From contig DATKWV010000053.1 of the NCBI GenBank assembly GCA_035529405.1, positions 1 through 36,857 on the forward strand: a stretch of DNA of 36,857 nt. The letters are read 5' to 3'. Positions 11,823-34,546 of the stretch are shown here, in pieces. A program made the translations under genes and the position numbers. Numbering within the stretch: position 1 is the stretch's first letter; every line of letters starts with the position of its first letter. Under the pieces are notes generated by a model that was not told the origin of the DNA, did no database searches, and saw only the letters and a program-made list of their open reading frames with translations. Source of the stretch: Sedimentisphaerales bacterium (GTDB lineage: Bacteria > Planctomycetota > Phycisphaerae > Sedimentisphaerales > Anaerobacaceae).

Positions 11823-14429
11823 TTACCACCGATATATAACGCTTATGTAAATACTGGATATAACCAGGAAAATCAGCATTATGGGCAGGCCCAGATGCGC
11901 AAACTCATGAAAAGTCAGCCTTGCAGGGACCTGGCTGTCATCTTCAGCCGCCGACAACGGCCGGCCCTGTTCCTTAACGAATTTATCGAACAGCGTGGCG
12001 GTGACACTGCCGGCCGTTGCGCCGACCAGCGTGCCGCTGGAGCCGGCGCAGACTCCCAGTGAAAGCGACCACCAGTAAATATTATGGGGAGCCGCGCTTT
12101 TAAGCGCCATCACCACCGGCAGAAACAAGGCCGTGGTCGGGCCGGCATTGAGAAAACAGGTCACCAGTGCCGCCGCCCACATCAGCAAAAGACACAGTAC
12201 CAGCAGATTTCCGAAAGACAGGTGCGCGATGATATCCGATATATAACCAAGAAGCCCCGCTGCCTCCGCGGCCCCCACGAGCACGAAAAGGCCGGAGAAA
12301 AACAAAACATCACGGATACTGACTTTCTCGAGAAGTCTGAACGGCTCACATTCGCTGGCCGCCAGGGCGATAACTCCGCCGGCAAGAGCGATGATAGCCG
12401 GCGAGCAGCTCAGATAATCGGAAATCAAAAAGCCCACAATAACAATGCCTAAAATAACAAGACCCCTGTTCAGTGCGCCGGGGTTTTTAATGGTTGTGGG
12501 CAATGAGTGCTTGAGATTAGTGAAAAACCGGTCTTGGTCGTCAGTGCTGTCACCGGCCAACCGGTCAAAATCCGGGTCCGGCACCCGGCAATTGTCATAC
12601 TCATCAGGCCCTGCGGCCTCTAAAGGCCGGCTGTTTACCCTGCTTTTGGAACTTTTGAACAGGGAAGGCTTTGCGATGCGCAGGTACACCAGAAGAACAA
12701 ACAATTCCAGCAGACAAATCGGAAGCATATACGAGGTAAACTGGTAGAATGGCACGCCCGCCTCGGCGCCTATAATCATGTTGGGAAAATCGCCGACCAT
12801 GGTCGAAGCGCCGCCGAGATTGGAGGCAATAACCATACTGATTAAAAAAGGCCTGGCGTCAAAATTGAGATATTTCGATAATTTCAGCACCATCGGCGCC
12901 ATCAGCATAATGGTTGTAAGATTGTTGACTACCAGCGAAAAACAATACGTCACAAGGCAGAAAAGCCACATTACCTTCCACTTGTCGCCGCCGGTGGCAA
13001 TGGTTATCCTTTTGGCAAGGTACTCGAGAGCGCCGGCCTCGTCCAGCACGCCGGTAACCAGCTGCATTCCGACAATAAAACAAAGTACATCCAGCTTGGT
13101 CAACAGTGCCGAGGCGATGCGGTCCTGGTCGTAAAATCCGACATGGTAGCCCATGACAGCTATAACTATCGCGCCCAGAACAAACAGCACCACCCGGTCA
13201 AGGATGTTTCTGTACACTAAATAATAAATAAGGGCAAAGATAAGCAGAACCAGTACCACCTCAGCCAGAGAACCGCTGCCGGGTAAAAAGTAAACGGCCT
13301 TGGCCGCGTGCACCGTAAGCTGTTTTTCACGTCCCTCTCGCAGCACGGTCAGCTTGATTTTTTTCGACTGACAAAGCTGCGGTGCGATTTTGTCAAAGAA
13401 GGCCCTGTCGGTTATTCTGTTGCCGTCGATGCTGACAATTACATCACCGCGTCTAAGCCCGGCATGTTCTGCGGGTGAATTGTTTTGTATATAGTTGACT
13501 ATTTCGCCGCGTCTTTGAGGTACTGTGCGCTGGGCAGCCACCACCGGATTGGCTGCCAGAAGCTCGGCGCCCAGCCACGTACATACAGGCTCGACAGGTC
13601 CCTGGCTCCATTGGGGGATGGGTAATGCTGAAAGGAAATTCTCCGCCTGGGCGGCACTGATTGCGTAGCTGAACGAAGCCGGCGCACCGGCCGGACGAAC
13701 AAAAGGCAGTGCCAGGGCGATTACATAGCCGTTTAAATCAACCAGCGGCCCGCCGGCGTTTTCAGCATCAAGGGATATATCCGTCTGGACCAAATCCCGA
13801 TACCTGGTTTTTTTGCCTGTGCGTGCGAGGTGTTCCTGCCCCGGGGCGTTCTCAACGACCAGCGTTTGACGTCTTTTGGTAATAGTGCCGGTTTTTGTCG
13901 TCAGCTCCCAGCCCGAAGGCGTTCTTTTGCCGCCTATGGCAACGATGCTGTCGCCTCTTTTAATGTGGGACAAATCCGCAAGTTGCGCAGGTTCGAATTC
14001 TTCAGTCCCTGCGGTATTACCGGCGCTTGCCTTAAGCAGCGTCAGGCTCGTCAGTTTGTCGCTGGTTATCACGCTGGCGTCGTACTTGTTATTTTTGTAG
14101 TCGATAACGTACAAAGACTGGATATCCGGTGTTAATGGTGCCGAGGTTAAGAGGAAACCGCCCCTATCGACAATCACCCCGCAGCCGATGACGCTTATGT
14201 GGGTGTCAATGCCCTGCTTCTTGACGGCCCACAGGCTCACCACGCTGGGACCGGCCTGTGCCAGGGCCGGTTCCGGATTACATACAAGTTGAGCCTCAGG
14301 CGGTTGAATCGACCGGGACCTGAACTGTTCCCACAACACCCACAGAACAATCAAAACGGCAAACAGCGACAGAACCGTTATCCACGATTTAATATATTTT
14401 GTCGCCATTGATTCCTTCAGGTTTCTCAT
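11823..14429 (-). CDS. mamO: MamO-like degenerate trypsin domain + PDZ + ArsB/NhaD/CitMHS-type (MamN-like) permease, fused in one 868-aa protein
   Basis: The HtrA-like fold is recognisable, but the catalytic positions read LLTSAPL (no His), SLTLLK (no Asp) and ENAGGPL (Ser to Ala). The PDZ has SPAEHAGLRRGDVIVSIDG. The C-terminal ~480 aa is polytopic, with SLVVNNLTTIMLMAP and ASNLGGASTMVGDFPN. Confidence 0.75.
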   Translation of the reverse strand: MRNLKESMATKYIKSWITVLSLFAVLIVLWVLWEQFRSRSIQPPEAQLVCNPEPALAQAGPSVVSLWAVKKQGIDTHISVIGCGVIVDRGGFLLTSAPLTPDIQSLYVIDYKNNKYDASVITSDKLTSLTLLKASAGNTAGTEEFEPAQLADLSHIKRGDSIVAIGGKRTPSGWELTTKTGTITKRRQTLVVENAPGQEHLARTGKKTRYRDLVQTDISLDAENAGGPLVDLNGYVIALALPFVRPAGAPASFSYAISAAQAENFLSALPIPQWSQGPVEPVCTWLGAELLAANPVVAAQRTVPQRRGEIVNYIQNNSPAEHAGLRRGDVIVSIDGNRITDRAFFDKIAPQLCQSKKIKLTVLREGREKQLTVHAAKAVYFLPGSGSLAEVVLVLLIFALIYYLVYRNILDRVVLFVLGAIVIAVMGYHVGFYDQDRIASALLTKLDVLCFIVGMQLVTGVLDEAGALEYLAKRITIATGGDKWKVMWLFCLVTYCFSLVVNNLTTIMLMAPMVLKLSKYLNFDARPFLISMVIASNLGGASTMVGDFPNMIIGAEAGVPFYQFTSYMLPICLLELFVLLVYLRIAKPSLFKSSKSRVNSRPLEAAGPDEYDNCRVPDPDFDRLAGDSTDDQDRFFTNLKHSLPTTIKNPGALNRGLVILGIVIVGFLISDYLSCSPAIIALAGGVIALAASECEPFRLLEKVSIRDVLFFSGLFVLVGAAEAAGLLGYISDIIAHLSFGNLLVLCLLLMWAAALVTCFLNAGPTTALFLPVVMALKSAAPHNIYWWSLSLGVCAGSSGTLVGATAGSVTATLFDKFVKEQGRPLSAAEDDSQVPARLTFHEFAHLGLPIMLIFLVISSIYISVIYRW

Positions 14430-15392: not shown

Positions 15393-15599
15393 CTATTGCC
15401 GCACTATGTCCAGCAGAACTACCCTGGCTACATCAATATTCGCGACCACGGTCTTGAAAGCCCGAATATCGTTCACTTTCTGATTATTGACCTTCTTAAC
15501 CACATCTGCCGGCGCAATGCCGGCCTCCATTGCTCCATTTTTACCTGATAGTATGACAGGTAGCGCACCGGCCGCGGTAACGATGAGGGGCCGTTGCAT
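15393..15599 (-). CDS. Orphan partial PDZ-like ORF in the +1 frame relative to the end of the mamE-like gene. It may be a separate overlapping gene or a frameshifted MamE C-terminus.
   Basis: LPVILSGKNGAMEAGIAPADVVKKVNNQKVNDIRAFKTVVANIDVARVVLLDIVRQ aligns residue-for-residue in pattern with the PDZ of 5714..6343. It overlaps the upstream CDS by 59 nt. Confidence 0.4.
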   Translation of the reverse strand: MQRPLIVTAAGALPVILSGKNGAMEAGIAPADVVKKVNNQKVNDIRAFKTVVANIDVARVVLLDIVRQ

Positions 15600-17595
15600 T
15601 TTTTGTTATGACCGGCGCAGCAGCAAGTACGCCGCCGGCATTTGTGGGCACTACAGTATGACAGGTAATACACGGACCACGGTAACGATGAGGGGCCTTT
15701 GCGTCTTTTGTTATGGGCGGCGGATCAGGAAGTATGTCGCCGGCGTCTGTGGGAAGCTGGCCTCCGGTCGTCATGAAAATGTGGCAGTTAGTGCATGCAC
15801 GTCCCCGATTGCGATGTGGGCGCAGTGCACCCGGCTGGATCGGCTGGGCCGCCTCCATTTGAGCAAAGCCCAGCATATTGGCGTTCCGTGCCGTCATAAT
15901 AAATGTCATCTTCGTGCCCCGACGGCTGACTTGCACCTGTGCCTGCTTTCCTTCCTGCACCCGTTCACGCTGCGTAGCCTCGAAAAATGCTCTCAGGTCA
16001 GGTGTAGGAATACCCCCGATGGACTGGACCATATCCCCGGCCAGGATGCCGGACTCGGCGGATTCGAGCGTAACCTCGTCAACCAGCACGCCGGTTTCCC
16101 CCTTCGGAATCCGATATTCGGTGGCCAGTTCCGCAGTCAGCGGAATTACCTCCAAACCCAGCCAGTGCCCTTCGATAAAGTCCTTTCCTGCGGCGTTCTG
16201 CTCGCGGGGTGAGGGCAATGTTTCAGTCGGTGCCGTCGCCAGCGCAACGGTCTGAAGGGCCAGCGTGTTTCCTTGAGGCGCCTTGGGAAGCAGGCTGCGG
16301 ACGTTAGGCGGTTCCGGCCGAAGCGTACAAACCAAAGTTTTCTTACTGTTATTTCTGAAAAAAGTAAGCTCTGCCGTTTCACCGGCCTGCCTTCCATCCA
16401 GAAAAGACCAGAGCATTTTGTCGTTTCTGATGCGCTTGCGGTCAACTCGAAAGATTACGTCTCCTCTCATAAGGCCCGCCGCTGCCGCAGGAGAATTGAG
16501 AAAAACGCGGTTGACCAGCACACCATAATTAATGGGCAAATCGAACTCTCTGGCGACCACATCGTCCACGCCCCTGACGGCGATACCCAGCCAGCAGGGT
16601 CGTGAAGCAACAGTCCTTGCCATCATGCGCAGATTAGCCAAGGCCGGGACATTGAAGGCGTTGGTATTGCCCGCAGCACGTTGTATATTCCCCCCAGCCG
16701 CCGGTGACGGCACTATCTCTATAAAATCACCGAAAGCTGCTTTTGCCTGATTAACCGGCACTGCAAAACCGATACCGCTGAAAGATGTTGTCGGTGAATA
16801 AATAGCCGTATTGATACCGATAACCTGTCCCTGGGGATTGACCAGCGCGCCGCCGCTGGAACCGGGATTAATGGAAGCGTCGGTTTGAATCAGGCCTTTT
16901 ATGAGTTTGTCACCGGCTGTAAGTGTGCGGTCCGTATTGCTGATAATTCCTGCTGATGCGCTCTGCGACAAACCGAAAGGATTGCCTATTGCCACAACCT
17001 GCTGGCCAATAAATACCTTTTTGGAATCGCCCAGCGGCGCGGGTGTAAAAGTTTCTTTGGAAGCAGTGTTTACCTTTATAATCGCCAAATCCAGGTCCGG
17101 CCTGCTGTCGATAAGCTCAGCCGAATAGGATTTAATCAGCTGGTCATAACTGAAGGTAACAACGATATTCTCAGCCCCATTGACAACATGATAGTTGGTA
17201 AGGATATAGCCGAGATGATGTACAATGATACCGCTGGCGGTTTGTTCCATGGCCCCGGAGGTGTTAATACCCACCACAGCCGGCGAAACAATTCCGATGG
17301 CACGATTAAAGGACATTACCTGCGGCGTGGCACCGGTCACCGAATCCGGATTTTGTTTGCCGTACCAGGGCGGAACAAAGCTTGCTGTTCTGACATCAGC
17401 GTTTGCTGCCGATGGAACCGAGTTTCTTCGCAATGCGCTCCCAAAAGACATCGGTCCCCTGTTTCTTTGAGCCTGCCGTATGTCATCGGCATAGTAAAAT
17501 GCAAGCACGATTGTAGCGGCAATCAATACTCCTACCGCCGCAAGCCACGGCCCCAGCGTCTTTCGTGCACAAGTGTCGTTACCGTTATCAGCCAT
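15541..17595 (-). CDS. mamE: MamE-like HtrA serine protease: TM, active trypsin domain, two PDZ domains, three C-terminal magnetochrome (CXXCH) units
   Basis: The catalytic triad context is intact (LTNYHVV, DLAIIK, GSSGGAL). There are two PDZ-like segments. The C-terminus carries PHRNRGRACTNCH, PHRYRGPCITCH and PHRYRGRCATCH. Confidence 0.85.
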   Translation of the reverse strand: MADNGNDTCARKTLGPWLAAVGVLIAATIVLAFYYADDIRQAQRNRGPMSFGSALRRNSVPSAANADVRTASFVPPWYGKQNPDSVTGATPQVMSFNRAIGIVSPAVVGINTSGAMEQTASGIIVHHLGYILTNYHVVNGAENIVVTFSYDQLIKSYSAELIDSRPDLDLAIIKVNTASKETFTPAPLGDSKKVFIGQQVVAIGNPFGLSQSASAGIISNTDRTLTAGDKLIKGLIQTDASINPGSSGGALVNPQGQVIGINTAIYSPTTSFSGIGFAVPVNQAKAAFGDFIEIVPSPAAGGNIQRAAGNTNAFNVPALANLRMMARTVASRPCWLGIAVRGVDDVVAREFDLPINYGVLVNRVFLNSPAAAAGLMRGDVIFRVDRKRIRNDKMLWSFLDGRQAGETAELTFFRNNSKKTLVCTLRPEPPNVRSLLPKAPQGNTLALQTVALATAPTETLPSPREQNAAGKDFIEGHWLGLEVIPLTAELATEYRIPKGETGVLVDEVTLESAESGILAGDMVQSIGGIPTPDLRAFFEATQRERVQEGKQAQVQVSRRGTKMTFIMTARNANMLGFAQMEAAQPIQPGALRPHRNRGRACTNCHIFMTTGGQLPTDAGDILPDPPPITKDAKAPHRYRGPCITCHTVVPTNAGGVLAAAPVITKNATAPHRYRGRCATCHTIR
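15544..15753 (-). repeat. Tandem 105-nt (35-aa) duplication encoding magnetochrome units 2 and 3
   Basis: agtatgacaggta..ggtaacgatgaggggcc..ttttgttatg occurs at about 15551 and again at about 15656. Confidence 0.85.
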
Positions 17596-17611: not shown

Positions 17612-20116
17612 CTAAGCTTTTATCCTCAGATTAAAGCGTTGTCCCTGGCGATAAACATTCAAAGATATATCTCTTTGCGGGTCTGTTTTATTCATGACCT
17701 TTATGAAATCGACGATTGTTTCGACCGGCTGGTTGCCGATTGCATTGATTACATCTCCTGCCAACAGCCCGGCAGCAGCAGCCTGGCCGGCACTTTCGGT
17801 AATAACAACCCCTTTTTCTCCTTCCGGAATATTGTAAGTCAATGCCAATACGGGCGATAATGCCTCCACCCCCATTCCCAGCACCTCAACTTCATCGGCT
17901 CCCACCTCTCCGCCGGCCAGCACACCCGACAATCCCGGCGGCTGGACATTCTGAGGATTGAACGGCTCGAAAGGCTGTGTGCCCAGTGCCAGTGCCTGTG
18001 CCTGAATTGCTGCCATACCCTGTGCTGCGGGGCCTTCGGTTTCCGGAAGGAAAAGGTCCCAGCCGGCCCCTTGTAAGCCAAACGGCCTGGCAATCAGCAC
18101 CGGTGAAATGCTTATGGTCTTGCCGTCTCGATAAATGGTCAGCTTCATTTGCTGGCCTGGTTTTTTCTTCACGAGCACCCCTTCAAGCATCGCACCATCC
18201 CTGATTGCGCGACCGTCGGCACGGATTATCACATCGCCTCTCTGCAGCCCGGCTATCCTGCACGGCGAATTACCGAAAACTTCCATCACAAGCGCCCCTC
18301 GCGCCATAGGCAGGCCCACAAAAGTTTTAATTTGCCTGTCAACCGCCCTGACCCGTATGCCAAGCCACGGTCCATCCTGCTGACCGGCCGCCTGACGGAA
18401 TTGTCCTGCCGGCGGACACCACGGATAAAGCCCCAGGCCCCGTCGCATTGCCTGACTTTCAGGACCAGCGGCTTGTTGCATCCAGCTTTGCGGCGGACAC
18501 CAGGGATTTAATCCAAGGCCCGGCTGCGCAGGGAGGTTCCCCGTATTAACGCCGCCCTGCAGCCCGCCTACCGGCGGACACCAGGGGTATAAACCTTTGC
18601 CTTTCTGTACGGAACCGCCCAACTGGTTACGGGCCCAATTCGGAGCACCGCGCAAAACTTCGGTCACATTGCTCGGGGCGGTTTCTATAAACTCGGGAAA
18701 CGCTGCTTTGGCAGGGTCAATCGGGCTGGCAAAACCGATACCGCTGAATGCCTGTGTCGGCGAATAAATTGCCGTGTTCAGCCCTATGACCTCACCATTG
18801 ACGTTCACAAGCGGCCCGCCGCTTGAGCCGGGATTGATGGGCGCATCGGTCTGGATAAAGTTCGTGAAGGTCTTGTTACCGACAGCGAGCGTGCGCTGGG
18901 TGTTGCTGATAATCCCGAACGTTACACTTTGCTGCAGGCCGTAGGGACTGCCGACGGCCAATACCTCATCCCCGACAGATACGGCACTGCTGTTGCCGAT
19001 TAGTGCAGGGCTGAACTGCTCGTTGCCTTTGGAAAGTATCTTCAGTATGGCGAAATCAAGCTCGGGGGCCTCGTCAATCAATTGGGCCGGATAAGTCTTC
19101 GTTACCTGCCCAACGCTGAGCGTAACGGTGATATCCCTGGCGCCGTGTACGACGTGATGATTAGTCAGAACATAGCCGTTGCGATTTACAATCACTCCGG
19201 AACCGCCCCTGCCAAGTGCCTGAAACTGCTTGTCATTCTGCGGCGGCAAACCGGGCGCATTGGCGATTGTCTGCCAGCCGGGAAGACACGCCCCGGGCAC
19301 ATTGGCCATTGTCTGCCAGCCGCCCGGCGGACAAACCCAGGGTGCGCCTTGCCTCATCATCTGCGTGCCGCAGCTCGGGCAGCCGAGAGTATAGGCTGGA
19401 ACGCCGGCTCGATGAGGCATACTGGTGCCGCAATTGGGACATAGCAGAAATCCGCCGGAGCCCATTCCCCAGCCGCCGTTCCGTTGGCCCCAGACATACT
19501 GTGCAGAACCTGCCGCTTCCGGCGACTGGTCTGCGGGCTGGTTTTGGCCGGCCATCGGCTGGCCGGCACCGGGTACAGGATAAGGTCCCGGCGCACCTTC
19601 GCGCATCATTTGCGTTCCGCAGTTCGGGCAATTGACGGTGTAGGCGGGGACAGCTCTTTGATGAGGTACCCTTGTGCCGCAATTTGGGCAGGCCAGGTAG
19701 CCGCCGGGGCCCATTCCCCAGCCGCCCATCCTGCCTGCACCGGCTGCAGGCTGCGCCTGCACAGCAGGGCCGCCCTGACTTATAAAACTGCTGCCTACGT
19801 TGACACTTACCACCGAAGGCGCAATTTTGGCAACGATGTTTTTGTACGACATCTGTTGCGAAAAGGCGACCGGCTGGCCCTGAAAGGCAGCCTGTAATTG
19901 CTGCTGGGCGCCAAAGCCCCACTCTTCGAGAACGCCGGCCTGGAGTTCGGCCTGGGCCTGACGAAGATTTCGCTGGCTCTGGCGGTCCCAGTAAACAACC
20001 GCAACTATAACCAGGATGATTAACGTTATTAATACTGTCAGCAGGTTCCTGTTGCTGCCTGGGCCGCTTTGTGAGTTATCCACTGTCGACTCATCGCCTT
20101 TGGTTTTCTCTTCCAT
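17612..20116 (-). CDS. Second HtrA-family serine protease (MamE paralogue without magnetochrome). It carries a duplicated zinc-ribbon insert, Cys-Pro repeats and two PDZ domains.
   Basis: LTNHHVV, DFAILK and GSSGGPL are intact. The track start is GTG at 20122; the ATG at 20116 has AAGGTGG about 7 nt upstream. Confidence 0.85.
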   Translation of the reverse strand: MEEKTKGDESTVDNSQSGPGSNRNLLTVLITLIILVIVAVVYWDRQSQRNLRQAQAELQAGVLEEWGFGAQQQLQAAFQGQPVAFSQQMSYKNIVAKIAPSVVSVNVGSSFISQGGPAVQAQPAAGAGRMGGWGMGPGGYLACPNCGTRVPHQRAVPAYTVNCPNCGTQMMREGAPGPYPVPGAGQPMAGQNQPADQSPEAAGSAQYVWGQRNGGWGMGSGGFLLCPNCGTSMPHRAGVPAYTLGCPSCGTQMMRQGAPWVCPPGGWQTMANVPGACLPGWQTIANAPGLPPQNDKQFQALGRGGSGVIVNRNGYVLTNHHVVHGARDITVTLSVGQVTKTYPAQLIDEAPELDFAILKILSKGNEQFSPALIGNSSAVSVGDEVLAVGSPYGLQQSVTFGIISNTQRTLAVGNKTFTNFIQTDAPINPGSSGGPLVNVNGEVIGLNTAIYSPTQAFSGIGFASPIDPAKAAFPEFIETAPSNVTEVLRGAPNWARNQLGGSVQKGKGLYPWCPPVGGLQGGVNTGNLPAQPGLGLNPWCPPQSWMQQAAGPESQAMRRGLGLYPWCPPAGQFRQAAGQQDGPWLGIRVRAVDRQIKTFVGLPMARGALVMEVFGNSPCRIAGLQRGDVIIRADGRAIRDGAMLEGVLVKKKPGQQMKLTIYRDGKTISISPVLIARPFGLQGAGWDLFLPETEGPAAQGMAAIQAQALALGTQPFEPFNPQNVQPPGLSGVLAGGEVGADEVEVLGMGVEALSPVLALTYNIPEGEKGVVITESAGQAAAAGLLAGDVINAIGNQPVETIVDFIKVMNKTDPQRDISLNVYRQGQRFNLRIKA
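18407..18601 (-). repeat. Three G-L-(Y/N)-P-W-C-P-P repeats between the trypsin domain and PDZ1
   Basis: The copies read KGKGLYPWCPP, GLGLNPWCPP and RGLGLYPWCPP. A fourth, related PWVCPP lies at 19325-19342. Confidence 0.85.
19337..19726 (-). repeat. Two copies of a ~45-aa unit, GGWGMGxGG(Y/F)LxCPNCGT-x17-CPxCGTQMMRxGAP, inside the protease gene
   Basis: Both copies were read directly from the translation. They lie between the first trypsin strand (APSVVSVNVG) and GSGVIVNRNGYVLTNHH. Confidence 0.85.
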
Positions 20117-20283
20117 ATCCACACCACCTTTCGACTTGGGGTCGATTTGTCAATTGCCGGTTTCGAACACCTTCAGGAAATTGCAAATCCTGACGGACCG
20201 CCGCGCCCGAACCGGCACATAGTCCACCGCCGGCCGGCCCTTTCAAAATCAGCTTTGCAATTATCCCGGGCAATCATTTTCAG

Positions 20284-23896: not shown

Positions 23897-25279
23897 GTGA
23901 GATGCCTAAGGATTGTGCCGGTAGTGGTTATCATCTTTAGTATAAGCAGCCTGTGTATAGCCGAAAAAACCAACACCCAGCTGGAAAAGGGAAACCAGCA
24001 GCTGCGAGAAAGAGTTGAGCGACTGGAAAAACAGCTCGAAGACCTGGAAAAAATTGTTATGCAGCAGCCCCGGGCCGCGGAACAGCCGCAGCAGCCTCAG
24101 GCAGTCGAAAAACAAATCCAGCCGGCTGCGGCGGTCGAGCTGACCGACGCTGACTGGGAAAGAATCGCTGCCATGGTTGCCAAAGGCTCGGCGAAGAAAA
24201 AACCGGTCCTGTCGGACCTCGACATCGAGCTTTACGGCTACATCAAGGCAGACGCTTCTTACGATACCTCCAGGGTGTGGCCGGGCAATTTTGTTATTTA
24301 TGCCGACAGGGGCAAAACCGGCGACAGCGAATTCAACCTCACCGCAAAGCAGACACGATTAGGCCTGAGAATCGGCGGCCCCGAAGACATCGACACAAAA
24401 ACAAGCGGCTTAGTCGAAATAGATTTCTACGGCGGCAACGCCACCGAAAACCAGGCAAAAATACAGATGCGCCATGCATATTTGAAAATCGACTGGCCGG
24501 ACAAACGTTTCAGCCTCCTCGCGGGCCAGACCGCCGATGTCATATCCCCACTTTACCCCGATACCCTGAACTACACCGTTTTGTGGGATGCAGGTAATAT
24601 CGGCTACAGACGACCACAACTGCGCTTTACCAAAAACTACTGGCTCAATGCCGATACCGACCTGCAGCTTGATGCAGCGGTCGCTCGTACCATAGGCGAC
24701 GACGATTTGAACACAAGCGCAGGCGAAGATGCCGGTTTCCCGACCTTTCAAAGCCGCGCAGGTGTAACCTTCCCGTGGTTCGGGTATAAACCTACCGTCG
24801 TCGGTATTTCCGGGCACTGGGGCGAGGAAGAATACGATTCACAGGATGTCGAAAGCTGGTCTGTCAACCTCGACGTGACCCAGCCGATTAACGAATGGCT
24901 TACAATCAAAGCCGAACTGTTTGACGGTGAGAACCTGGACACCTATTTTGGCGGCATTGGCCAGGGCGTCAACAATAACAGAAACAACCGGCGAATCGGC
25001 AGCAGGGGCGGCTGGATAGCCGCCAATCTCGGGCCGTGGGGCAAGTGGTCGTTCAATCTGGGTGTCGGTATGGACGATGTTGACGCCTCGGATACCGACG
25101 GCCTTCCAGAAGACGAGACCGGGAGAATATTTAATCGTTCGGTATTTGGTAACATGATTTACTCGGTCAACAAGAATACTCAAATCGGCCTGGAGGTTTC
25201 GCACTGGCGGACCGAATACAACGGTTCGGGCGACGCTGATGACCTGAGGGCACAAACGTCCTTTATTTATAAATTTTAG
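23897..25279 (+). CDS. Outer-membrane porin with an N-terminal coiled coil (DcaP-like architecture)
   Basis: It has a signal peptide (VVVIIFSISSLCIAEK), a coiled coil (QLRERVERLEKQLEDLEKIV), then alternating beta-strand sequence ending in a C-terminal aromatic (SFIYKF). Confidence 0.6.
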   Translation: MRCLRIVPVVVIIFSISSLCIAEKTNTQLEKGNQQLRERVERLEKQLEDLEKIVMQQPRAAEQPQQPQAVEKQIQPAAAVELTDADWERIAAMVAKGSAKKKPVLSDLDIELYGYIKADASYDTSRVWPGNFVIYADRGKTGDSEFNLTAKQTRLGLRIGGPEDIDTKTSGLVEIDFYGGNATENQAKIQMRHAYLKIDWPDKRFSLLAGQTADVISPLYPDTLNYTVLWDAGNIGYRRPQLRFTKNYWLNADTDLQLDAAVARTIGDDDLNTSAGEDAGFPTFQSRAGVTFPWFGYKPTVVGISGHWGEEEYDSQDVESWSVNLDVTQPINEWLTIKAELFDGENLDTYFGGIGQGVNNNRNNRRIGSRGGWIAANLGPWGKWSFNLGVGMDDVDASDTDGLPEDETGRIFNRSVFGNMIYSVNKNTQIGLEVSHWRTEYNGSGDADDLRAQTSFIYKF

Positions 25280-25402
25280 GCCGATGCTGTTTCGGTTCGG
25301 GTTTTTGCTAACCAATAAGGGTATTTTGCTTTATTTTTAAGCCAAAGCGGTTAAGATACCGGGATATAACAGTTTTGTTACACGCAAGATAAGGAGATTA
25401 TT

Positions 25403-27391
25403 ATGGCACAGGAATCCAAAGGCAAAACTATTGCCTCTCTTATGACCGAGGAACGCAGGTTCCCGCCCCCGGCGTCAATCAGGGCAAATGCTTACATCAA
25501 CGACCCGAAGAAATACGAGAAGATGTGGCGGCAGTCCATTAACCACCCGGACGGCTTCTGGCTGGAACAGGCAAAGACACTTACCTGGTTCAAGGCACCC
25601 GCCAAAAGTCTCGAATACACCTGGGACACAAAGGCCCGGACAATCGAACATACATGGTTTGCCGACGGCGAACTTAATGTTACATATAACTGCCTCGACA
25701 GACATCTGGACACCCCTGTTGCAAAAAAGACCGCATTGATTTGGCAGGGTGAAGAGGAAGATAAGGTTAGAAAATATACATACGAACAGCTCCACAAAGA
25801 GGTCTGCAAATTCGCAAACGTCCTGAAATCCAAGGGCATCAAAAAAGGCGACCGCGTTGCCGTTTACATGCCGATGGTACCCGAACTTGCAATAGCCATG
25901 CTGGCCTGTGCGCGTATAGGGGCTATCCACTCGGTTGTCTTCGGCGGTTTCAGTGCCGAGGCCCTGGTGGACAGGATTAACGATTCCGACTGCAAAATGC
26001 TTATAACCGCGAATGTGTCGCTTCGCGGCGGAAAACACATTCCGCTCAAGGGCATAGCCGACGACGCACTGAAAAACACGCCTTCAATCGAATGCGTTAT
26101 AGTAGCCAAGGTCAACAACGAACCCTGCAATATGCAGCAGGACAGGGACAGCTGGTATCATGATGAAATGGCCAATGCCGAAGAACAGTGCCAGTGCGAG
26201 CGAATGAACGCAGATGACCCGCTGTTTATTCTCTATACGTCCGGTTCGACAGGAAAACCCAAAGGCGTTGTTCATATCACCGGCGGGTATCTTCTGCACA
26301 CGGCGATTACGCACAAACTGATATTCAACATTCATGACGATGATATTTACTGGTGCACAGCCGACATAGGCTGGGTAACGGGCCACAGCTATATAGTTTA
26401 TGGGCCGCTTGCCAACGGCTCAACTTCGCTGATGTTCGAGGGTATTCCGACATACCCTGACGCGGGACGTTTCTGGCAGATTTGTGACAAGTTCGGGGTA
26501 ACCGTATTTTACACGGCGCCTACTGCCATACGTGCGCTGATGCGCCAGGGCGACGAATGGCCCGCCAAATACAAGCTCGATACCATGAGAGTCCTGGGCA
26601 CGGTCGGTGAGCCGATAAATCCGGAGGCCTGGATATGGTATTATGAAAAGATTGGGCGCGGCAGATGTCCTATAGTGGACACGTGGTGGCAGACCGAAAC
26701 CGGCGGCTTTATGATATCGCCGCTGCCGGGCGCCCATACCTTAAAACCGGGCAGTGCCTGCAGGGCCGTTTTCGGTGTGGACCCGGTGGTTTTAAAAGAC
26801 GACGGAACCCAGTGCGCCGCCAACGAAGGCGGAAAGCTGTGTATTCGCAAGCCCTGGCCGGGCATGATGAGAACCATGTGGGGCGACCACGACCGCTTCA
26901 TCGATACCTATTTTACGATGTACGATAACATTTACTTTGCCGGCGACGGCTGCCGTGTGGACCCGGACGGCGATTACTGGCTGATGGGCAGAATCGACGA
27001 TGTCGTCAATGTCTCCGGGCATCGTATCGGCACAGCCGAGGTGGAAAGCGCACTTGTAAGCCACGCAAAGGTCGCCGAGGCTGCTGTTACGCCGATACCG
27101 CACGAGATTAAAGGCCAGGCCCTTTATGCCTTCGTTACCCTAAAGAACGGTGTGAAAGAAAGCGACGAACTGAAAAAAGAGCTTGTAATGCATGTAAGAA
27201 AGGAAATAGGCGCCATCGCCGCCCCTGAGGCTATTCAGTTCGCCCCGGCCCTGCCCAAGACACGCTCCGGCAAGATTATGCGCAGAATCCTTCGAAAAAT
27301 CGCAGAAAAAGACACCAGCAACCTCGGTGATATCAGCACTCTTGCAGACCCGAGTGTCGTGGAAAATCTAATCAGTAACCGAGGCCAGTAA
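25403..27391 (+). CDS. acs: Acetyl-CoA synthetase (AMP-forming)
   Basis: The 662-aa product has [20 protein letters not shown], and a C-terminal [11 protein letters not shown] containing the conserved acetylatable Lys. AAGGAG lies upstream of the ATG. Confidence 0.95.
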
Positions 27392-27447
27392 AGCCGTCTG
27401 CGGCACATAAGTTTGTGCTGCGACATTATCGAATGAAAGGAGTGATT

Positions 27448-28026
27448 ATGGAAGAAATGAAGGTAACGGACACTACCGCCAATCCTGCACCGCTGGGTTT
27501 GATGGGTTTCGGCATGACAACGGTCCTGCTGAACCTGCACAACGCCGGTTATTTCGGCCTGGGGACGATGATTCTGGCAATGGGCGTATTTTACGGGGGC
27601 ATAGCGCAGGTTATCGCCGGCATAATGGAATGGAAGAAAAATAACACATTCGGCACCACCGCGTTTACCTCATACGGCCTTTTCTGGCTGTCGCTTGTGG
27701 GTTTGATAGTGGCAAAGAAGCTCGGCCTGGCCGAGGGGCCGTCAAGCAGCGCAATGGCGGCTTATCTTTTTATGTGGGGCCTGTTTACCGCCGTAATGTT
27801 CATCGGCACACTGAGGTTCAACCGTGCGCTGCAGTTCGTATTTGCGTCGTTGGCGCTATTGTTTTTCCTTCTGGCGCTGGGAGATATTACAGGCAGTTCA
27901 GCCATAAAGGTCATAGCCGGTTATGAGGGAATCATCTGCGGCTTTTCAGCTATTTACACGGCCCTGGCCCAGGTATTAAACGAAGTTTACGGCAGAACGG
28001 TATTGCCGTTGGGCCCCGTAAAATAA
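27448..28026 (+). CDS. GPR1/FUN34/YaaH-family acetate/succinate channel (SatP-like)
   Basis: [14 protein letters not shown] motif and six TMs. The start was moved to the ATG at 27448 (AAAGGAG 5 nt upstream). Confidence 0.85.
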
Positions 28027-28077
28027 GCCCGGATATTTTAGGCGGCCTGTGTTTACGCAGGCGCGCAGTAACACAAT

Positions 28078-28114
28078 AAAAACGGCCTGAATACAGTTCA
28101 GGCCGTTTTAATTT
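28078..28114 (+). terminator. Intrinsic terminator after the acetate operon
   Basis: AACGGCCTGAA-tacag-TTCAGGCCGTT is an 11-bp perfect stem, followed by TTTTAATTT and preceded by an A run. Confidence 0.8.
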
Positions 28115-28627
28115 GTGTACAGCGGTAAGAACAAATCCGATTCAAAGCAATAAGCTTTCCGGCGGACAAGGGTAAAATTTAGGGTGCAAAAAATATCAAT
28201 CAATCAAAATTCGGGCCTTTTTGAGGCGTCAAACCTGATTTTTGGCCTGAAAACGGCGATTTGGCATCAATCAAAACCGTCCACCCCCAAAAAACGGGCA
28301 AAAAAGCAGCGAAAAATGATGACAAAATGACAAAAAAGCGCGATTTTTGTACCAAAACGACAAAAAAATGCGCGATTTTGTACGATTTTTTTCGCGCTAT
28401 TTCCGGAAATGATTGACCAAAACCGTGACTCGGGGCCCGCCGGTGGCAGGGGGAAAATGGTTAATTGGTAAATGGTGATTTACGGACAGGGCAAAGCAGA
28501 TGGAATATCGTGTCCCGGGGCACGGCGCTGGCTGGTGAATCGTATCTGGTTAGCTGAAGCCGACATTGCCCAGCCGGTCAATGATTTTACCTGTGCTTGC
28601 CGGGTTCGGAATCAAAACTTGGGAGTT

Positions 28628-29755
28628 TTACAGGCCGTGAATCGCAAACACGTTTGCCTTGACCTTTTCGATTGTGGCGTCGATGTGAGGCATTACCGCA
28701 TTATGCTGTTGTTCAGTGACGGCAAGTCTTCTGTCTCTAAGCCCTCCCTGCCAATCGGTGGTCCCCAGCATTACCCCGCCAAGACCAAGTTTGCTGCTGT
28801 CGGTCTCGGCGCCGGCCAAAAGACTCCACACCAAAGCCCAGGCCCTTACCGTGTTGTCTATATTATATCCGCCGCCGCCGGTTGCCAGAATGGGTTTGTT
28901 AAAGCTCAAAAGCTGCTCGATAATTTCCGCATAGGTATTATTTGTAAGGCACAGGTTGGCCAGCGGGTCGCCCGCCAGCGCATCTGCTCCCATCTGCAGA
29001 ACTATAACGTCCGGATTGTAGGCGTTCAGCAACGGCAAGGCTATGGCGTTGAACGTCTTCATATAGGCCTGGTCGTAAGTGCCGATGACAAGAGGCACGT
29101 TCACACAATACCCCAAGCCCTGGCCGGTGCCGATTTCATCTTCGAACCCGGTTCCGGGAAAAAGTGTCCTGCCGCTCTGATGAAATGATATTGTCATCAC
29201 ATCATTGCGGCTGTAAAAAGCATTCTGCACGCCGTCACAGTGATGGACGTCCACATCGAGGTATAAGACGCGTTTGCCGGCTTCGGCAAGTACAATACAC
29301 CCGATAGCCACATCGTTCATAAAGCAAAATCCCGACGCTTGTTCGGGGCCGGCGTGGTGAAGCCCGCCGGAGGGGTTGAACGCAACATCAGCCTGGCCTG
29401 AAAGAATGAGGCCGGCGGCGGTAATGGTGGCCCCGCAGGCCATTGCCGAATAGTCATACATATCGGCGAAGACGGGACAATCCGGTGTACCAATACCCAT
29501 ATAAAGTGCTTCTCTGTCGAACCTGCCGGCAGCGGCGTTTTTCAGCACGTGCAGATAACGTGCCGAATGGAACTTTTTAAGCTGTATTCTTTCTGCCGGT
29601 TCCGGTGCTGCAACAGCGCAGTTGTCCGCCGACAGAAGCCCCAGCGAATCAAGCACCTTGCGGGTCTTTCCGGCCCTGCTGACATCAAACGGACAGTGGG
29701 CCGGATACGCAAAATGCTCCATTTGTTCCGAATGAATAAATACCGCTTTTCTCAT
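28628..29755 (-). CDS. Histone deacetylase-family (AcuC-like) Zn-dependent deacetylase
   Basis: Contains GGLHHAGPEQASGFCFMNDVAI and DVDVHHCDGVQNAF. The start was trimmed to the ATG at 29755 (MRKAVFIHSE); the upstream 64 codons look non-coding. Confidence 0.85.
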   Translation of the reverse strand: MRKAVFIHSEQMEHFAYPAHCPFDVSRAGKTRKVLDSLGLLSADNCAVAAPEPAERIQLKKFHSARYLHVLKNAAAGRFDREALYMGIGTPDCPVFADMYDYSAMACGATITAAGLILSGQADVAFNPSGGLHHAGPEQASGFCFMNDVAIGCIVLAEAGKRVLYLDVDVHHCDGVQNAFYSRNDVMTISFHQSGRTLFPGTGFEDEIGTGQGLGYCVNVPLVIGTYDQAYMKTFNAIALPLLNAYNPDVIVLQMGADALAGDPLANLCLTNNTYAEIIEQLLSFNKPILATGGGGYNIDNTVRAWALVWSLLAGAETDSSKLGLGGVMLGTTDWQGGLRDRRLAVTEQQHNAVMPHIDATIEKVKANVFAIHGL

Positions 29756-29952
29756 GTTTAGTGACTTTTTTAGTGACCTCGTACAATTACCAAGCTGCCC
29801 GGGATTCGGAATGGGTATGATTATAGCTGTTGTGCTTTTCTGATGCAATCGTTTAGCGTGTAAATAGCTACCTTGAACGGCCGGCTCACCCGCCATCAGA
29901 AGACAACTTCTGCCTGGAAACCCACAGCTTGCCCCGCCTGCGGTCAAATCGC

Positions 29953-30183
29953 TTACCGGTCTTTGTCGCCGGCGTATTCGGACAGCAGGGAGTCGTTGAT
30001 TGGAATACTGTTTGCTTTCATAAACGAGACAAGTTCGTTTACGGGAATTCTGCGGTCGCCGCTGCCCGGCAGCCGGTAGCCGTTAAGTATACCCCTGTCG
30101 AACCATTTCTGCACGGTCCTGTGAGCAACGTTACAGATTTTGGCAACTTCACCTGAGGTCAGAATTTTTTTGCCTTTAGCCAT
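29953..30183 (-). CDS. Small helix-turn-helix DNA-binding protein (excisionase/MerR-superfamily HTH)
   Basis: LTSGEVAKICNVAHRTVQKWFDRGILNGYRLPGSGDRRIP. The start was trimmed to the ATG at 30183 (MAKGKKIL). Confidence 0.7.
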   Translation of the reverse strand: MAKGKKILTSGEVAKICNVAHRTVQKWFDRGILNGYRLPGSGDRRIPVNELVSFMKANSIPINDSLLSEYAGDKDR

Positions 30184-30405
30184 AGCGTTAGTGTCCCAGA
30201 AAAGAAAAAGGGCTTTGTCCGGCATACCCCCAGAACTGACCCCGGCTGCAGCGGACAAACCTCAAAAAACAGTCCGTCCCTGCTGCTGAATAGTATTATC
30301 GGCAAAAACTTACAAAAAGTTTGATGCTTTTTTGCAAATATTTGGCGTCACCATCGTCAAGAAACACCTTTCGTGACCGGCAAAAAGCGGTTTAGCTCTA
30401 TCCTT

Positions 30406-32265
30406 TCACACCAAATCGTAGGCTATATTGTAAACATGGCCGTCGAATTCGGTGTTTATCCGGCAGCCGCAGTTCAGAAAGATAGTCAGCATAGGCTTGT
30501 TTTCCGGCAGGACTTTGGCGTAGAATCTTTTCACACCCCTCTTCCTGGCAATCTGGGTAATGTAGTGCAATAAGAAAGTGCCCATCCCTTTTTTCTGCCA
30601 CTCGTCCTTGACCACAAAGGCAACCTCAGCAGCATAAGACTTCGGGTCCAGGAAATACTGACCCATGGCTACTATCTGCTCGCCGGAAACGTCCGGTACG
30701 GTACCGACTATGCAAAGGTTGCTGTGGTAATCTATATTTGCCAATTGCTGCACGTCTCTGTGCGGAAATGTCATTGTCCGTGTCATATAACGGGTTCGCA
30801 CGCTGGCTTCGCTGAGTGAATAGAGCATTTTTGAAATGGCAGGTTCGTCGGTAGGTTTTACGGGTCTAAAGAATATTTCCGTGCCGTCGCGTAAAACGTC
30901 CGAATGTTCTAATTCCTCGGGGTAGGCACTTTCCTCAGCGCCAAGCTCTATCTGGTCCTGATAAACATAATTATGTGTCTTGGCAGCCTGAATTAACTCC
31001 TTTCTGAATTTTGGGTGTGCTATATTTATGAGGTCTATGGCCCTTTCTCTTATACTTTTGGCGTGCAAATCTGCAACGCCGAACTCGGTGACCACGTAGT
31101 GTACGTCGCCGCGTGTTGTAACAACGCCTGCACCTTCGGTCAGATGCGGCACAATCCTGCTGACCTGTCCGTCTTTGGCCGTAGAGGGCATTGCTATTAT
31201 GGGTTTTCCCTGTCTGCTTCGGGCACAGCCCCGAATGAAATCCACCTGTCCGCCTATACCGCTATAGAACTTATATCCCAGGGAGTCGGCGCAGACCTGC
31301 CCGGTCAAATCAATCTCCAGACCCACGTTGATTCCGACCATTTTCTCGTGCTGACTTATTATGGAGGGGTCGTTTACATACTCGGTTGGATAAAATTCAA
31401 AGAACGGATTATTGTCAATGTAATCGTAAAGCCGGCGAGAGCCCATACAGAAACTTGCCACAACCTTGCCGCGGTTCAGGGTTTTTTTGGCGCAGGTTAT
31501 GGCACCGCATTCAATCAGGTCGATAATCCAGTCTCCGAACATTTCCGTATGAACACCGAGGTCTTTTTTGTCTTTAAGGAATTCTGCAAGTGCCTGTGGG
31601 ATACGTCCTATCCCGCACTCGATGGTACTGCCGTCCTCGACCAGGCGGGCGATGTTCTGGCCTATTTCACGAAGTGTCTCATCCGGCTGCCCATCGGGCG
31701 TTTCAATAATCTCCTGGTCATAATCGACCAGGACATCGATATTGTTAACGTGTATGAAACTGTCACCGAACGTGCGAGGCATACGGCTGTTGGCCTGTGC
31801 TATTACGTACCTTGCATTGGCTGCTGCCGATTTAACTATATCCACAGACACGCCGAGGCTGCACATGCCGCTGACATCCGGCGGCGATACACTAATCAGC
31901 GTCACATCAACAGGAATTCTTCCGGTGTTAAACTGACCAGGTATTTCAGACAGAAGTATAGGTGTATAGTCGCCTACTCCCCGACTAATCGCCCCGCGGA
32001 CGTTGTCTGCAACAAAAAAACTGTTCATCTTGAACCTGTCACGATACTTTTCACAGACGTAGGGTGCTTCGCCCATGGTCAGCAAATGAAGGATTCGAAC
32101 ATCATACAAACGGTCACAATCGGCTACGAGGCTCTCGACCAGGTACTGCGGCTGGCCGCATCCGGTGCCAATAAACACAGTGTTACCCGATTTAATCAGT
32201 TGCATCGCCGCCGGGGCGGTTTTTATTTTGCCCTTGTACTTTTGTCTCCAGTCAAATGCCTGCAT
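30406..32265 (-). CDS. Acetyl-CoA hydrolase/transferase-family domain fused to a C-terminal GNAT acetyltransferase
   Basis: The N-terminal ~430 aa is CoA-transferase-like (GTGCGQPQ, GIGGQVDF). The C-terminus is a GNAT with motif A WQKKGMGTFLL. Confidence 0.75.
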   Translation of the reverse strand: MQAFDWRQKYKGKIKTAPAAMQLIKSGNTVFIGTGCGQPQYLVESLVADCDRLYDVRILHLLTMGEAPYVCEKYRDRFKMNSFFVADNVRGAISRGVGDYTPILLSEIPGQFNTGRIPVDVTLISVSPPDVSGMCSLGVSVDIVKSAAANARYVIAQANSRMPRTFGDSFIHVNNIDVLVDYDQEIIETPDGQPDETLREIGQNIARLVEDGSTIECGIGRIPQALAEFLKDKKDLGVHTEMFGDWIIDLIECGAITCAKKTLNRGKVVASFCMGSRRLYDYIDNNPFFEFYPTEYVNDPSIISQHEKMVGINVGLEIDLTGQVCADSLGYKFYSGIGGQVDFIRGCARSRQGKPIIAMPSTAKDGQVSRIVPHLTEGAGVVTTRGDVHYVVTEFGVADLHAKSIRERAIDLINIAHPKFRKELIQAAKTHNYVYQDQIELGAEESAYPEELEHSDVLRDGTEIFFRPVKPTDEPAISKMLYSLSEASVRTRYMTRTMTFPHRDVQQLANIDYHSNLCIVGTVPDVSGEQIVAMGQYFLDPKSYAAEVAFVVKDEWQKKGMGTFLLHYITQIARKRGVKRFYAKVLPENKPMLTIFLNCGCRINTEFDGHVYNIAYDLV

Positions 32266-32279
32266 AAATAAATTCCTGT

Positions 32280-34388: not shown

Positions 34389-34546
34389 AATCAGGTTGCC
34401 GTTTCTGCAAAACGGCCCAAAAAACAATCCATTTTCCTGCCGAACACCTTTATTATAAGCGTCTTCAAAGCCTGTTTCAACCAATTTACGAAATGAATAT
34501 AACCGCTATCACCGAAAAGTCTGGCGCTGTTGTCGTCTGAAATAGT

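Follow-up and report, generated by a model that had tools for sequence, protein, structure and literature searches.

A cysteine-centred PWCPP unit in a MamE-like protease of magnetosome gene clusters: a candidate thiolate or redox motif

The 36,857-nucleotide contig DATKWV010000053.1 of a Sedimentisphaerales bacterium (the window, meaning the whole stretch of DNA that was analysed) carries a magnetosome gene cluster, in which a MamE-like HtrA protease, here called MamE2, bears three PWCPP units in the linker between its protease domain and its first PDZ domain (PDZ1). The units are conserved among relatives from magnetosome clusters, and their conservation depends on the cysteine. We propose, with a probability of roughly one third (0.35), that they are copies of a cysteine-centred short linear motif, specific to the lineage and to magnetosome clusters, with a thiolate or redox role. 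They would lie on a disordered lumenal or periplasmic tether between the protease domain and PDZ1 of an oligomeric HtrA-type MamE paralogue, and their functional group would be an exposed thiol that a rigid Pro-Trp-Cys-Pro-Pro frame keeps in place between flexible glycines, present in a variable number of multivalent copies. Most probably this thiol would bind iron species (haem, non-haem Fe or Fe-S) reversibly as a thiolate ligand, or act as a redox site for them. The unit would couple the lumenal iron/redox state of the magnetosome to protease activity or assembly, a role analogous, not homologous, to that of the magnetochrome pair in alphaproteobacterial MamE and MamP.

PWCPP units and their distribution

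The gene and its units are located as follows (HMM, hidden Markov model).

17612..20122, minus strand: MamE-like HtrA (S1C) protease paralogue without magnetochromes (MamE2), 836 codons from GTG
18530..18610, minus strand: unit 1, core GLYPWCPP at 18572-18595, aa 505-531, unit HMM 37.0 bits
18449..18529, minus strand: unit 2, core GLNPWCPP, aa 532-558, unit HMM 34.2 bits
18368..18448, minus strand: unit 3, core GLYPWCPP, aa 559-585, unit HMM 40.3 bits
19292..19342, minus strand: degenerate unit PWVCPPGGWQTMANVPG with PWVCPP (19325-19342, aa 261-266), aa 261-277

In the translation (GTG numbering), the PWCPP pentapeptides occupy aa 513-517, 540-544 and 567-571, corresponding to window positions 18572-18586, 18491-18505 and 18410-18424, in the contexts KGLYPWCPPVGG, LGLNPWCPPQSW and LGLYPWCPPAGQ; QRGQGLYPWCPPGGRMQQ is an example of a unit sequence. 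A preliminary description of this DNA had placed a PWCPP triplet in a Gly/Gln-rich linker, and it indeed lies there, between the Trypsin_2 match (aa 307-448) and the PDZ domain (586-672). The repeats are spaced at exactly 27 aa, where about 25-30 aa had been given. Unit 3 abuts the start of PDZ1 (PWLGIRV) without a gap. The fourth motif of that description, PWVCPP, is present at its position immediately behind a zinc-ribbon-like module; as a unit it is weak, matching HMM positions 15-31 with 2.2 bits, and is at best a degenerate copy. A look-alike, ACLPGWQTIAN, within GACLPGWQTIANAPG (window 19253-19291, aa 278-290) and immediately C-terminal to PWVCPPGGWQTMAN, may represent one more decayed copy ahead of the protease core. 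Full units in the same N-terminal region were seen in a few relatives (P0048, P0061, P0062; relatives are cited by P numbers).

Given the composition of MamE2 itself, 1.5e-4 PWCPP copies per protein are expected by chance, and 20,000 shuffles of its sequence yielded one copy in 3 cases and two or more copies in none. The patterns PW.?CP and WCPP had no match in any other reading frame of the 36.9 kb window, and the unit HMM found none in the other proteins of the window's cluster, including the MamO-like protease and the MamE paralogue with magnetochromes (MamE-MCR). At the DNA level the three units share only the 15-nt core CCN TGG TGT CCG CCG, while their flanks have diverged. A tandem repeat of DNA or a DNA/RNA element was rejected in view of this divergence, of the variable codons and of the absence of any array in the output of Tandem Repeats Finder. 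Across 15 independent units the codons of P, C, P and P vary synonymously, so that selection acts on the protein.

The preliminary description had let its proposal depend on conservation in orthologues. Among the best 120 of 6,305 relatives, many of them metagenome fragments, 80 kept PWCP-containing units in one to four copies, with a modal spacing of 24 residues. The genes of these unit-bearing relatives sit in syntenic magnetosome clusters. Named sources among the closest relatives were mostly Planctomycetota or Phycisphaerales, with one Candidatus Riflebacteria; one more distant relative, from Verrucomicrobiota, lacks the motif. A census by profile HMM instead of regular expression comprised 186 units with the consensus IQRGQG-LYPWCPP-GG-RMQQMANT and a modal length of 24 aa. 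The proline after the cysteine position was present in 178/178 units, the proline at -2 in 166/173 and the tryptophan in 160/171, and both upstream and both downstream glycines were highly conserved (~95%). Cysteine itself occurred in 152/177 units and was substituted by Ser (10), Arg (7), Tyr (5) and His, Asp or Pro (1 each). The core consensus reads (I)-Q-R-G-x-G-[L/A/Q]-[Y/N]-P-W-C-P-P-G-G, of which about 12 residues, GxG[LA][YN]PWCPPGG, form the conserved stretch. Variants lacking the tryptophan occur in the same linkers (P0074-P0078, P0087, P0121; for example at locus L011), such as VPCPPPG after the first unit, or GAACPPGG and AMCPPGG in glycine-rich stretches of P0121; the occurrence of these Cys-Pro-Pro variants suggests that CPP(G) is the minimal core.

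Searched more widely, the motif proved to be closely tied to magnetosome genes. A degenerate DNA pattern for GxGxx[Y/N]PWCPPG, scanned over one genome per species for 185,579 species (GTDB), matched 13 loci, comprising seven true ones and six out-of-frame chance matches. The true loci belong to Riflebacteria, Planctomycetota SAG AM-311-N14 (two paralogues), Phycisphaerales bin71, MohnsGC08_bin89 and two metagenome-assembled genomes of Phycisphaerae. All seven (7/7) lie inside trypsin-like proteases within the gene order MamA-MamQ-MamI-MamI-MamE2-MamE(MCR)-CDF-MamO. An exhaustive HMMER search with a 34-residue unit profile against 1.84 billion representative proteins returned eight proteins at E ≤ 1e-3: six MamE-like proteases or fragments thereof, one MamP-like protein and one likely spurious match. 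The same kind of profile search of the PDB with the unit gave 0 matches at E ≤ 10. Thus, the search across magnetosome clusters that had been suggested at the outset located units in MamE-like proteases and in a MamP-like family, and almost nowhere else.

In the MamP-like protein, P0125, a transmembrane segment (TM) is followed by a zinc ribbon and a PDZ domain; behind these come another zinc ribbon and, at the C-terminus, three units (QYPWCPP, QNPWCPP and QNQWCPT). A search with P0125 produced ten relatives. In nine of them (P0126-P0134) the C-terminus is formed by one or two copies of [F/L]QxGxG..xWCPP, in most cases with just one last Arg behind them. The genes reside on magnetosome-cluster contigs beside CDF genes and a PDZ/magnetochrome/CitMHS fusion and, on longer contigs, also beside stand-alone trypsin genes and a MamI gene. 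Loci L015 (1-12043) and L016 display a different cluster layout, with the MamP-like WCPP protein, CDF genes and three separate trypsin-only genes (272, 282 and 286 aa). MamI was called only on L016; L015 additionally carries a magnetochrome-CitMHS fusion and a TauE gene.

The preliminary description had not recognised the repeat from any described Mam protein, and the searchable literature likewise contains no description of it: full-text searches for PWCPP or WCPP in a magnetosome context yielded nothing relevant. The motif and its recurrence in the MamP-like family thus appear to be undescribed; the protein itself is of a known kind, a MamE-like HtrA protease.

Cysteine dependence, membrane side and the magnetochrome position

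Conservation of the unit follows its cysteine. In proteins with several units, 102 of 107 units contain the cysteine and 5 do not; in single-unit proteins 39 have it and 24 lack it (Fisher test 4e-8, kinship ignored, as in all association tests of this analysis). All four flanking core residues were kept in 131/141 units with cysteine, compared with 15/29 units without it. Losses form a series of decay that runs from YPWCPP through YPW[S/R/Y/H]PP and YPG[S/R]PP or YSWSPS to internal deletions (LYP----GR, VY---PPGG) and finally to nothing. In distant relatives (P0121, P0117, P0074-78), CPP(GG) is retained even where W or Y is missing. On a quick neighbour-joining tree of the protease domain the motif is deep, being common to Riflebacteria and the distant proteases P0121 and P0117, and losses of the cysteine or of the entire core are dispersed among its tips, amounting to at least 15 independent events. 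Because the cysteine is kept more strictly in multi-unit proteins, the flanks decay after its loss and CPP(GG) persists, the thiol appears to be the functional centre, and the cysteine-less copies appear to be relics.

The surroundings of the units were studied in an AlphaFold2 monomer model of MamE2, calculated from a 73-sequence alignment; such monomers cannot show order that is induced by a cofactor or partner. The model is confident on the TM helix, two zinc-ribbon-like modules, the protease and both PDZ domains. The predicted local distance difference test (pLDDT) fell to ~31-35 over aa 502-581, the linker with the units, and to ~25 over the MamP-like tail, so that the unit-bearing segments of both families are predicted to be disordered. 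Docking of the units on a folded domain was rejected, since they were left disordered in the monomers of either family.

P0091 indicates the side of the membrane. It has one TM (aa 7-34), units at 414 and 440 and CXXCH motifs at 752 and 793, with no TM in between. Attachment of c-type haem by cytochrome c biogenesis is periplasmic. The units, being on the same side as these c-type haem domains, should therefore face the lumen or periplasm, a side of the membrane that haem does reach.

In canonical MamE a magnetochrome pair is found between trypsin and PDZ, and in MamP it is C-terminal to PDZ (PMC3971196). The PWCPP units occupy this slot in two independent architectures: in the MamE-like proteases, and in proteins of the P0125 type, whose architecture is that of MamP (PDZ, then magnetochromes) with WCPP units at the magnetochrome position. 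The preliminary description had stated that the repeats replace magnetochromes. The shared slot stands; replacement does not, as the magnetochrome-bearing MamE of this clade carries its CXXCH motifs at the C-terminus and not in the linker, some paralogues (P0084, P0089, P0091 and P0104) have both linker units and magnetochromes, and homology was not found. A comparison of the unit profile with 27 magnetochromes of the clade by hhalign gave a probability of 0.15%, and Smith-Waterman shuffle tests of the consensus gave p values of 0.33-0.93. The by-eye likeness of AAQPIQPG-ALRPH to AAAQIQRGQGLYPW was rejected on the same grounds (shuffle p=0.33), and a search of the linker of the window's MamE-MCR for a remnant unit with the unit HMM found nothing. 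With a single cysteine and no histidine, the units contain neither CXXCH nor the upstream P-H ligand of a magnetochrome. Derivation from a zinc or rubredoxin knuckle (CPPGG against CPxCG) was equally unsupported (shuffle p=0.11-0.29); each unit has one cysteine and a glycine at the position of the second cysteine of the knuckle, whereas true CPxCG knuckles exist in MamE2 at aa 145-168 and 228-251. The relation of unit to magnetochrome is thus only a positional analogy and not a demonstrated descent.

Possible functions of the unit

The preliminary description likened the Cys-Pro pair to haem regulatory motifs, which have a Cys-Pro core and are located in flexible loops (PMC3861479). The likeness holds in that all three units contain C-P and their segment is disordered in the AlphaFold2 model. 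A Cys-Pro core, nearby aromatic residues, disorder and the analogy with the magnetochrome slot fit a haem or iron thiolate, and it is for these reasons that we favour a thiolate/redox motif. What the thiol binds, and how this would regulate the protease, can be suggested less firmly. Haem bound in the manner of a haem regulatory motif is unlikely as the ligand, and we hold non-haem Fe or Fe-S to be just as unlikely.

Several observations weigh against a thiolate/redox motif. For a haem regulatory motif the conserved stretch is far longer than necessary, a length that suggests protein recognition, and the CP is followed by proline, where haem regulatory motifs usually have a hydrophobic residue. 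A free haem pool on the periplasmic or lumenal side is not established, and one cysteine per unit is a poor non-haem metal site. Fifteen cysteine-less units have P-W-x-P-P intact, and a clade of magnetochrome paralogues (P0066, P0068 and P0116) keeps YPWSP[P/T]GG, hinting at a role independent of cysteine. Moreover, the motif is not indispensable, as it was lost at least 15 times without compensation in four flanking loci: in four clusters with a cysteine-less MamE2, no WCPP was found elsewhere in the 4-10 kb flank on each side, and compensation by another protein was rejected within these flanks. The motif is either useful but dispensable, or those clusters are decaying.

Alternatively, the unit could be a protein-recognition motif, acting as an internal PDZ ligand or as a cleavage or docking site for the MamE-type proteases of the cluster. 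The units would then tune switch-like autoprocessing and mark the MamP-like protein as a substrate, the cysteine adding redox control or affinity. The form of the unit is that of a short linear motif, with a core of ~12 residues in a disordered region, a variable copy number and occurrence in two proteins of one system. In Magnetospirillum, processing of MamE, MamO and MamP depends on MamE, and direct cleavage was shown for the MamO linker and MamE (10.1101/047555). The peptides that the PDZ domains of MamE bind best are internal ones with an aromatic residue or a glycine at their centre, and such binding switches autoprocessing on (preprint 10.1101/047555). Both the processing of MamE and MamP and this peptide-driven switch would suit a recognition motif. 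From the last unit to the carboxylate-binding loop of PDZ1 downstream of it, the distance is always ~18 residues, and the P-W-x-P-P frame survives in some cysteine-less units. However, AlphaFold2 docked no unit on PDZ or protease in either family (pLDDT ~25-35; a monomer model is weak evidence here), and the cluster's MamO-like protease has no unit. The stricter retention of cysteine in multi-unit proteins and the decay of the flanks would be unexpected if the frame alone were the ligand. Recognition is accordingly possible, although we consider it improbable on balance.

A thiol/disulfide switch or crosslink is somewhat less probable again. Reversible intra- or intermolecular disulfides would report the lumenal redox potential, with other units, other HtrA protomers, an NSPC cysteine of PDZ1 or the MamP-like tail as partners. 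Conservation centred on cysteine and the periplasmic or lumenal location are in line with such a switch, and redox control is central to magnetosome mineral formation (PMC3971196). The PDZ1 cysteine (C621 in NSPCRIAGLQRGD, at 18260-18262) replaces the usual Ala of the PDZ 'SPA' motif and is present in 84/104 scorable relatives. Its association with the linker motif is weak (58/26/9/11, odds ratio ~2.7), and nine motif-bearing proteins, among them the four-unit P0038, are devoid of it; as an obligate disulfide partner it was rejected. A second cysteine was observed in the first PDZ1 strand (RVCSVD) of many relatives. Copy numbers of 1, 2, 3 and 4 leave no constant parity of cysteines, and neither the invariant proline after the cysteine nor the tryptophan is needed for a disulfide.

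A fully haem-free variant of the thiolate/redox motif is doubtful. Here the units, together with the conserved Cys4 ribbon modules of the same proteins, would form a thiolate module for iron or Fe-S binding, redox chemistry or nucleation and do the job of magnetochromes. If true, bacteria would have a second, independent way of managing the redox state of iron within an organelle, realised by MamE2 and MamP-like proteins of Planctomycetota-type clusters, which are mostly classed as putative greigite (Fe3S4) clusters.

Modification of the cysteine by an enzyme that reads the motif, for example single-thioether attachment of a cofactor, formylglycine oxidation or lipidation, is doubtful to a higher degree. 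Such an enzyme would account for strict and extended conservation around one cysteine in disordered segments of two families, and C-x-P is the first half of the sulfatase signature CxPxR. Yet the C-x-P-x-R rule fails, as position +4 is Gly in 142/177 units and Arg in 14/177; no candidate modifying enzyme was present in the window or in the related loci checked, and there is no histidine for haem ligation. Finally, a degenerate magnetochrome or zinc-knuckle remnant, or a neutral low-complexity linker repeat without a function of its own, is very improbable: the slot shared with magnetochromes, units of about their length (24-27 aa), the likeness between CPPGG and a CPxCG knuckle minus its second cysteine and the frequent losses would agree with it, but the hhalign probability of 0.15% and the shuffle values (p 0.33 for magnetochromes, 0.11-0.29 for knuckles), the core kept across Riflebacteria and Planctomycetota while spacers diverge, the synonymous variation of its codons and the recurrence in a second protein family speak against it.

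The unit is a conserved, cluster-restricted and cysteine-centred motif at the magnetochrome position in uncultured Planctomycetota, Riflebacteria and related lineages. To our knowledge, nearly all mechanistic work on magnetosomes has been done in two Alphaproteobacteria. No redox proteins other than magnetochromes are described for the magnetosome (PMC3971196). The motif offers an entry point to the coupling of iron and redox chemistry with protease-controlled biomineralisation in deep-branching, possibly greigite-forming magnetotactic bacteria (MTB), and with a single DNA pattern that marks seven true magnetosome-cluster loci and six chance matches in 185,579 species genomes, it is a sharp sequence marker. 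Should it be a PDZ ligand or cleavage site, then a natural ligand or substrate motif would have been identified for the first time for a MamE-type protease from outside Magnetospirillum.

Domains, gene cluster and known counterparts

The start codon of MamE2 is ambiguous: the open reading frame (ORF) opens with GTG at 20122, and public gene calls use ATG at 20116 (834 aa). The protein is 100% identical to the public protein P0001. Its further domains and the relevant genes of the cluster are as follows.

19976..20059, minus strand: single N-terminal membrane anchor, ~aa 22-49 (hydropathy scan; AlphaFold2 helix from aa 24)
19592..19702, minus strand: zinc-ribbon-like module 1, CPNCG...CPNCG, aa 141-177 (weak Pfam DZR and Zn_ribbon_3 matches)
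19337..19453, minus strand: zinc-ribbon-like module 2, CPNCG...CPSCG, aa 224-262 (AlphaFold2 pLDDT ~71-82)
18683..19204, minus strand: trypsin-like catalytic domain, aa 307-480 (TNHHVV, DFAILK, GSSGGP)
18107..18367, minus strand: PDZ1, aa 586-672 (Pfam PDZ_2)
17615..17890, minus strand: second PDZ domain (PDZ2), ~aa 745-836 (Pfam PDZ_6 and PDZ_1; AlphaFold2 pLDDT >85)
15541..17595, minus strand: MamE paralogue with three C-terminal magnetochromes and no unit (Pfam MCR 1.8e-19)
11823-14429, minus strand: MamO-like fusion of Trypsin_2, PDZ and CitMHS (anion permease), 868 aa
5714-6373, minus strand: MamP-like ORF with TM, Cys-rich ribbon (CPYC...C...C) and PDZ, no magnetochrome

The Trypsin_2 match of MamE2 reached 1e-33 over aa 307-448, and the catalytic triad is intact: among 73 relatives, D356 and S433/S434 are invariant and H322/H323 are ≥90% conserved. 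PDZ_2 matched with 8.8e-27 in two stretches, accompanied by PDZ_6 and PDZ_1 matches. The cysteines of module 1 (C145, C148, C165 and C168; pLDDT ~70-89) and of module 2 (C228, C231, C248 and C251) are likewise ≥90% conserved in the 73 relatives. Both Cys4 modules, zinc-ribbon or rubredoxin-knuckle-like, form an insertion in the protease fold, behind its first strands (~aa 93-110) and ahead of its core (aa 307 on), and the tandem would constitute predicted lumenal Cys4 sites in an HtrA protease. Full-text literature searches for zinc ribbons in MamE yielded nothing relevant. Magnetochromes are absent from MamE2, with no CXXCH in its 836 aa and no Pfam MCR match at E ≤ 0.01; it is therefore a MamE-like paralogue and not canonical MamE.

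All genes of the window's cluster are encoded on the minus strand. They comprise FeoA/FeoB, the MamP-like PDZ protein, three CDF proteins (MamB/M-type), a MamK-like actin, the MamO-like fusion, MamE with magnetochromes, the PWCPP protease, two MamI-like ORFs, LemA/MamQ and TPR/MamA. Seven other genomes share the synteny of this cluster. The MamP-like ORF ends right after its PDZ domain and has no WCPP tail; its relatives P0125-P0134 go on with a second zinc ribbon and 1-3 C-terminal WCPP units. The MamO-like CitMHS fusion is kept in related clusters, with products of 844-892 aa. Genes of acetate and acetyl-CoA metabolism flank the cluster at 23897-34484, coding for an AMP-forming acetyl-CoA synthetase, a GPR1/FUN34/YaaH family membrane protein, a deacetylase, an acetyl-CoA hydrolase-GNAT fusion and an ADP-forming acyl-CoA synthetase. 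As they begin at 23897, the right-hand boundary of the cluster is between ~22.4 and 23.9 kb. Magnetosome clusters of Phycisphaerae (orders SG8-4 and UBA1845) have been described; those of Planctomycetota are mostly classed as putatively greigite type, and magnetite-type clusters are also known (PMC7449369; PMC7602337).

MamE2 resembles MamE of Magnetospirillum and other MTB in its membrane anchor, its trypsin domain with an intact triad, its two C-terminal PDZ domains, the accessory element between protease and PDZ1 and its cluster neighbours mamI, mamQ, mamA and mamB/M-type CDF genes. It differs in the absence of CXXCH, in the three PWCPP units of its linker and in the two Cys4 modules ahead of the trypsin core; magnetochromes are carried by a sister paralogue of the same cluster, at its C-terminus.

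Like the magnetochrome domain (Pfam PF18509; MamE, MamP, MamT and MamX), the PWCPP unit is short (~20-30 aa), tandem, specific to MTB, lumenal and cysteine-containing. Magnetochromes, however, attach c-type haem covalently and require CXXCH together with a PH motif that supplies the distal His, whereas the unit, with one cysteine and no histidine, is predicted to be disordered, has no Pfam MCR match or profile similarity and co-occurs with true magnetochromes.

With the W-x-C-P-x-C-G knuckle and the WCPPC site of tryparedoxin and nucleoredoxin the unit shares a local resemblance of W-C-P-P-G. The second cysteine is replaced by glycine, and neither fold could be formed by a unit this short and disordered.

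The haem regulatory motifs of Irr, HAP1, ALAS, HO-2 and Bach1 have in common with the unit a Cys-Pro core, aromatic residues nearby, a flexible segment and often multiple copies. They consist of CP in a weak context, usually with a hydrophobic residue after the proline, and are found in cytoplasmic, nuclear or mitochondrial proteins. In contrast, the PWCPP unit is a conserved block of ~12 residues with a second proline in that place, and its predicted location is periplasmic or lumenal.

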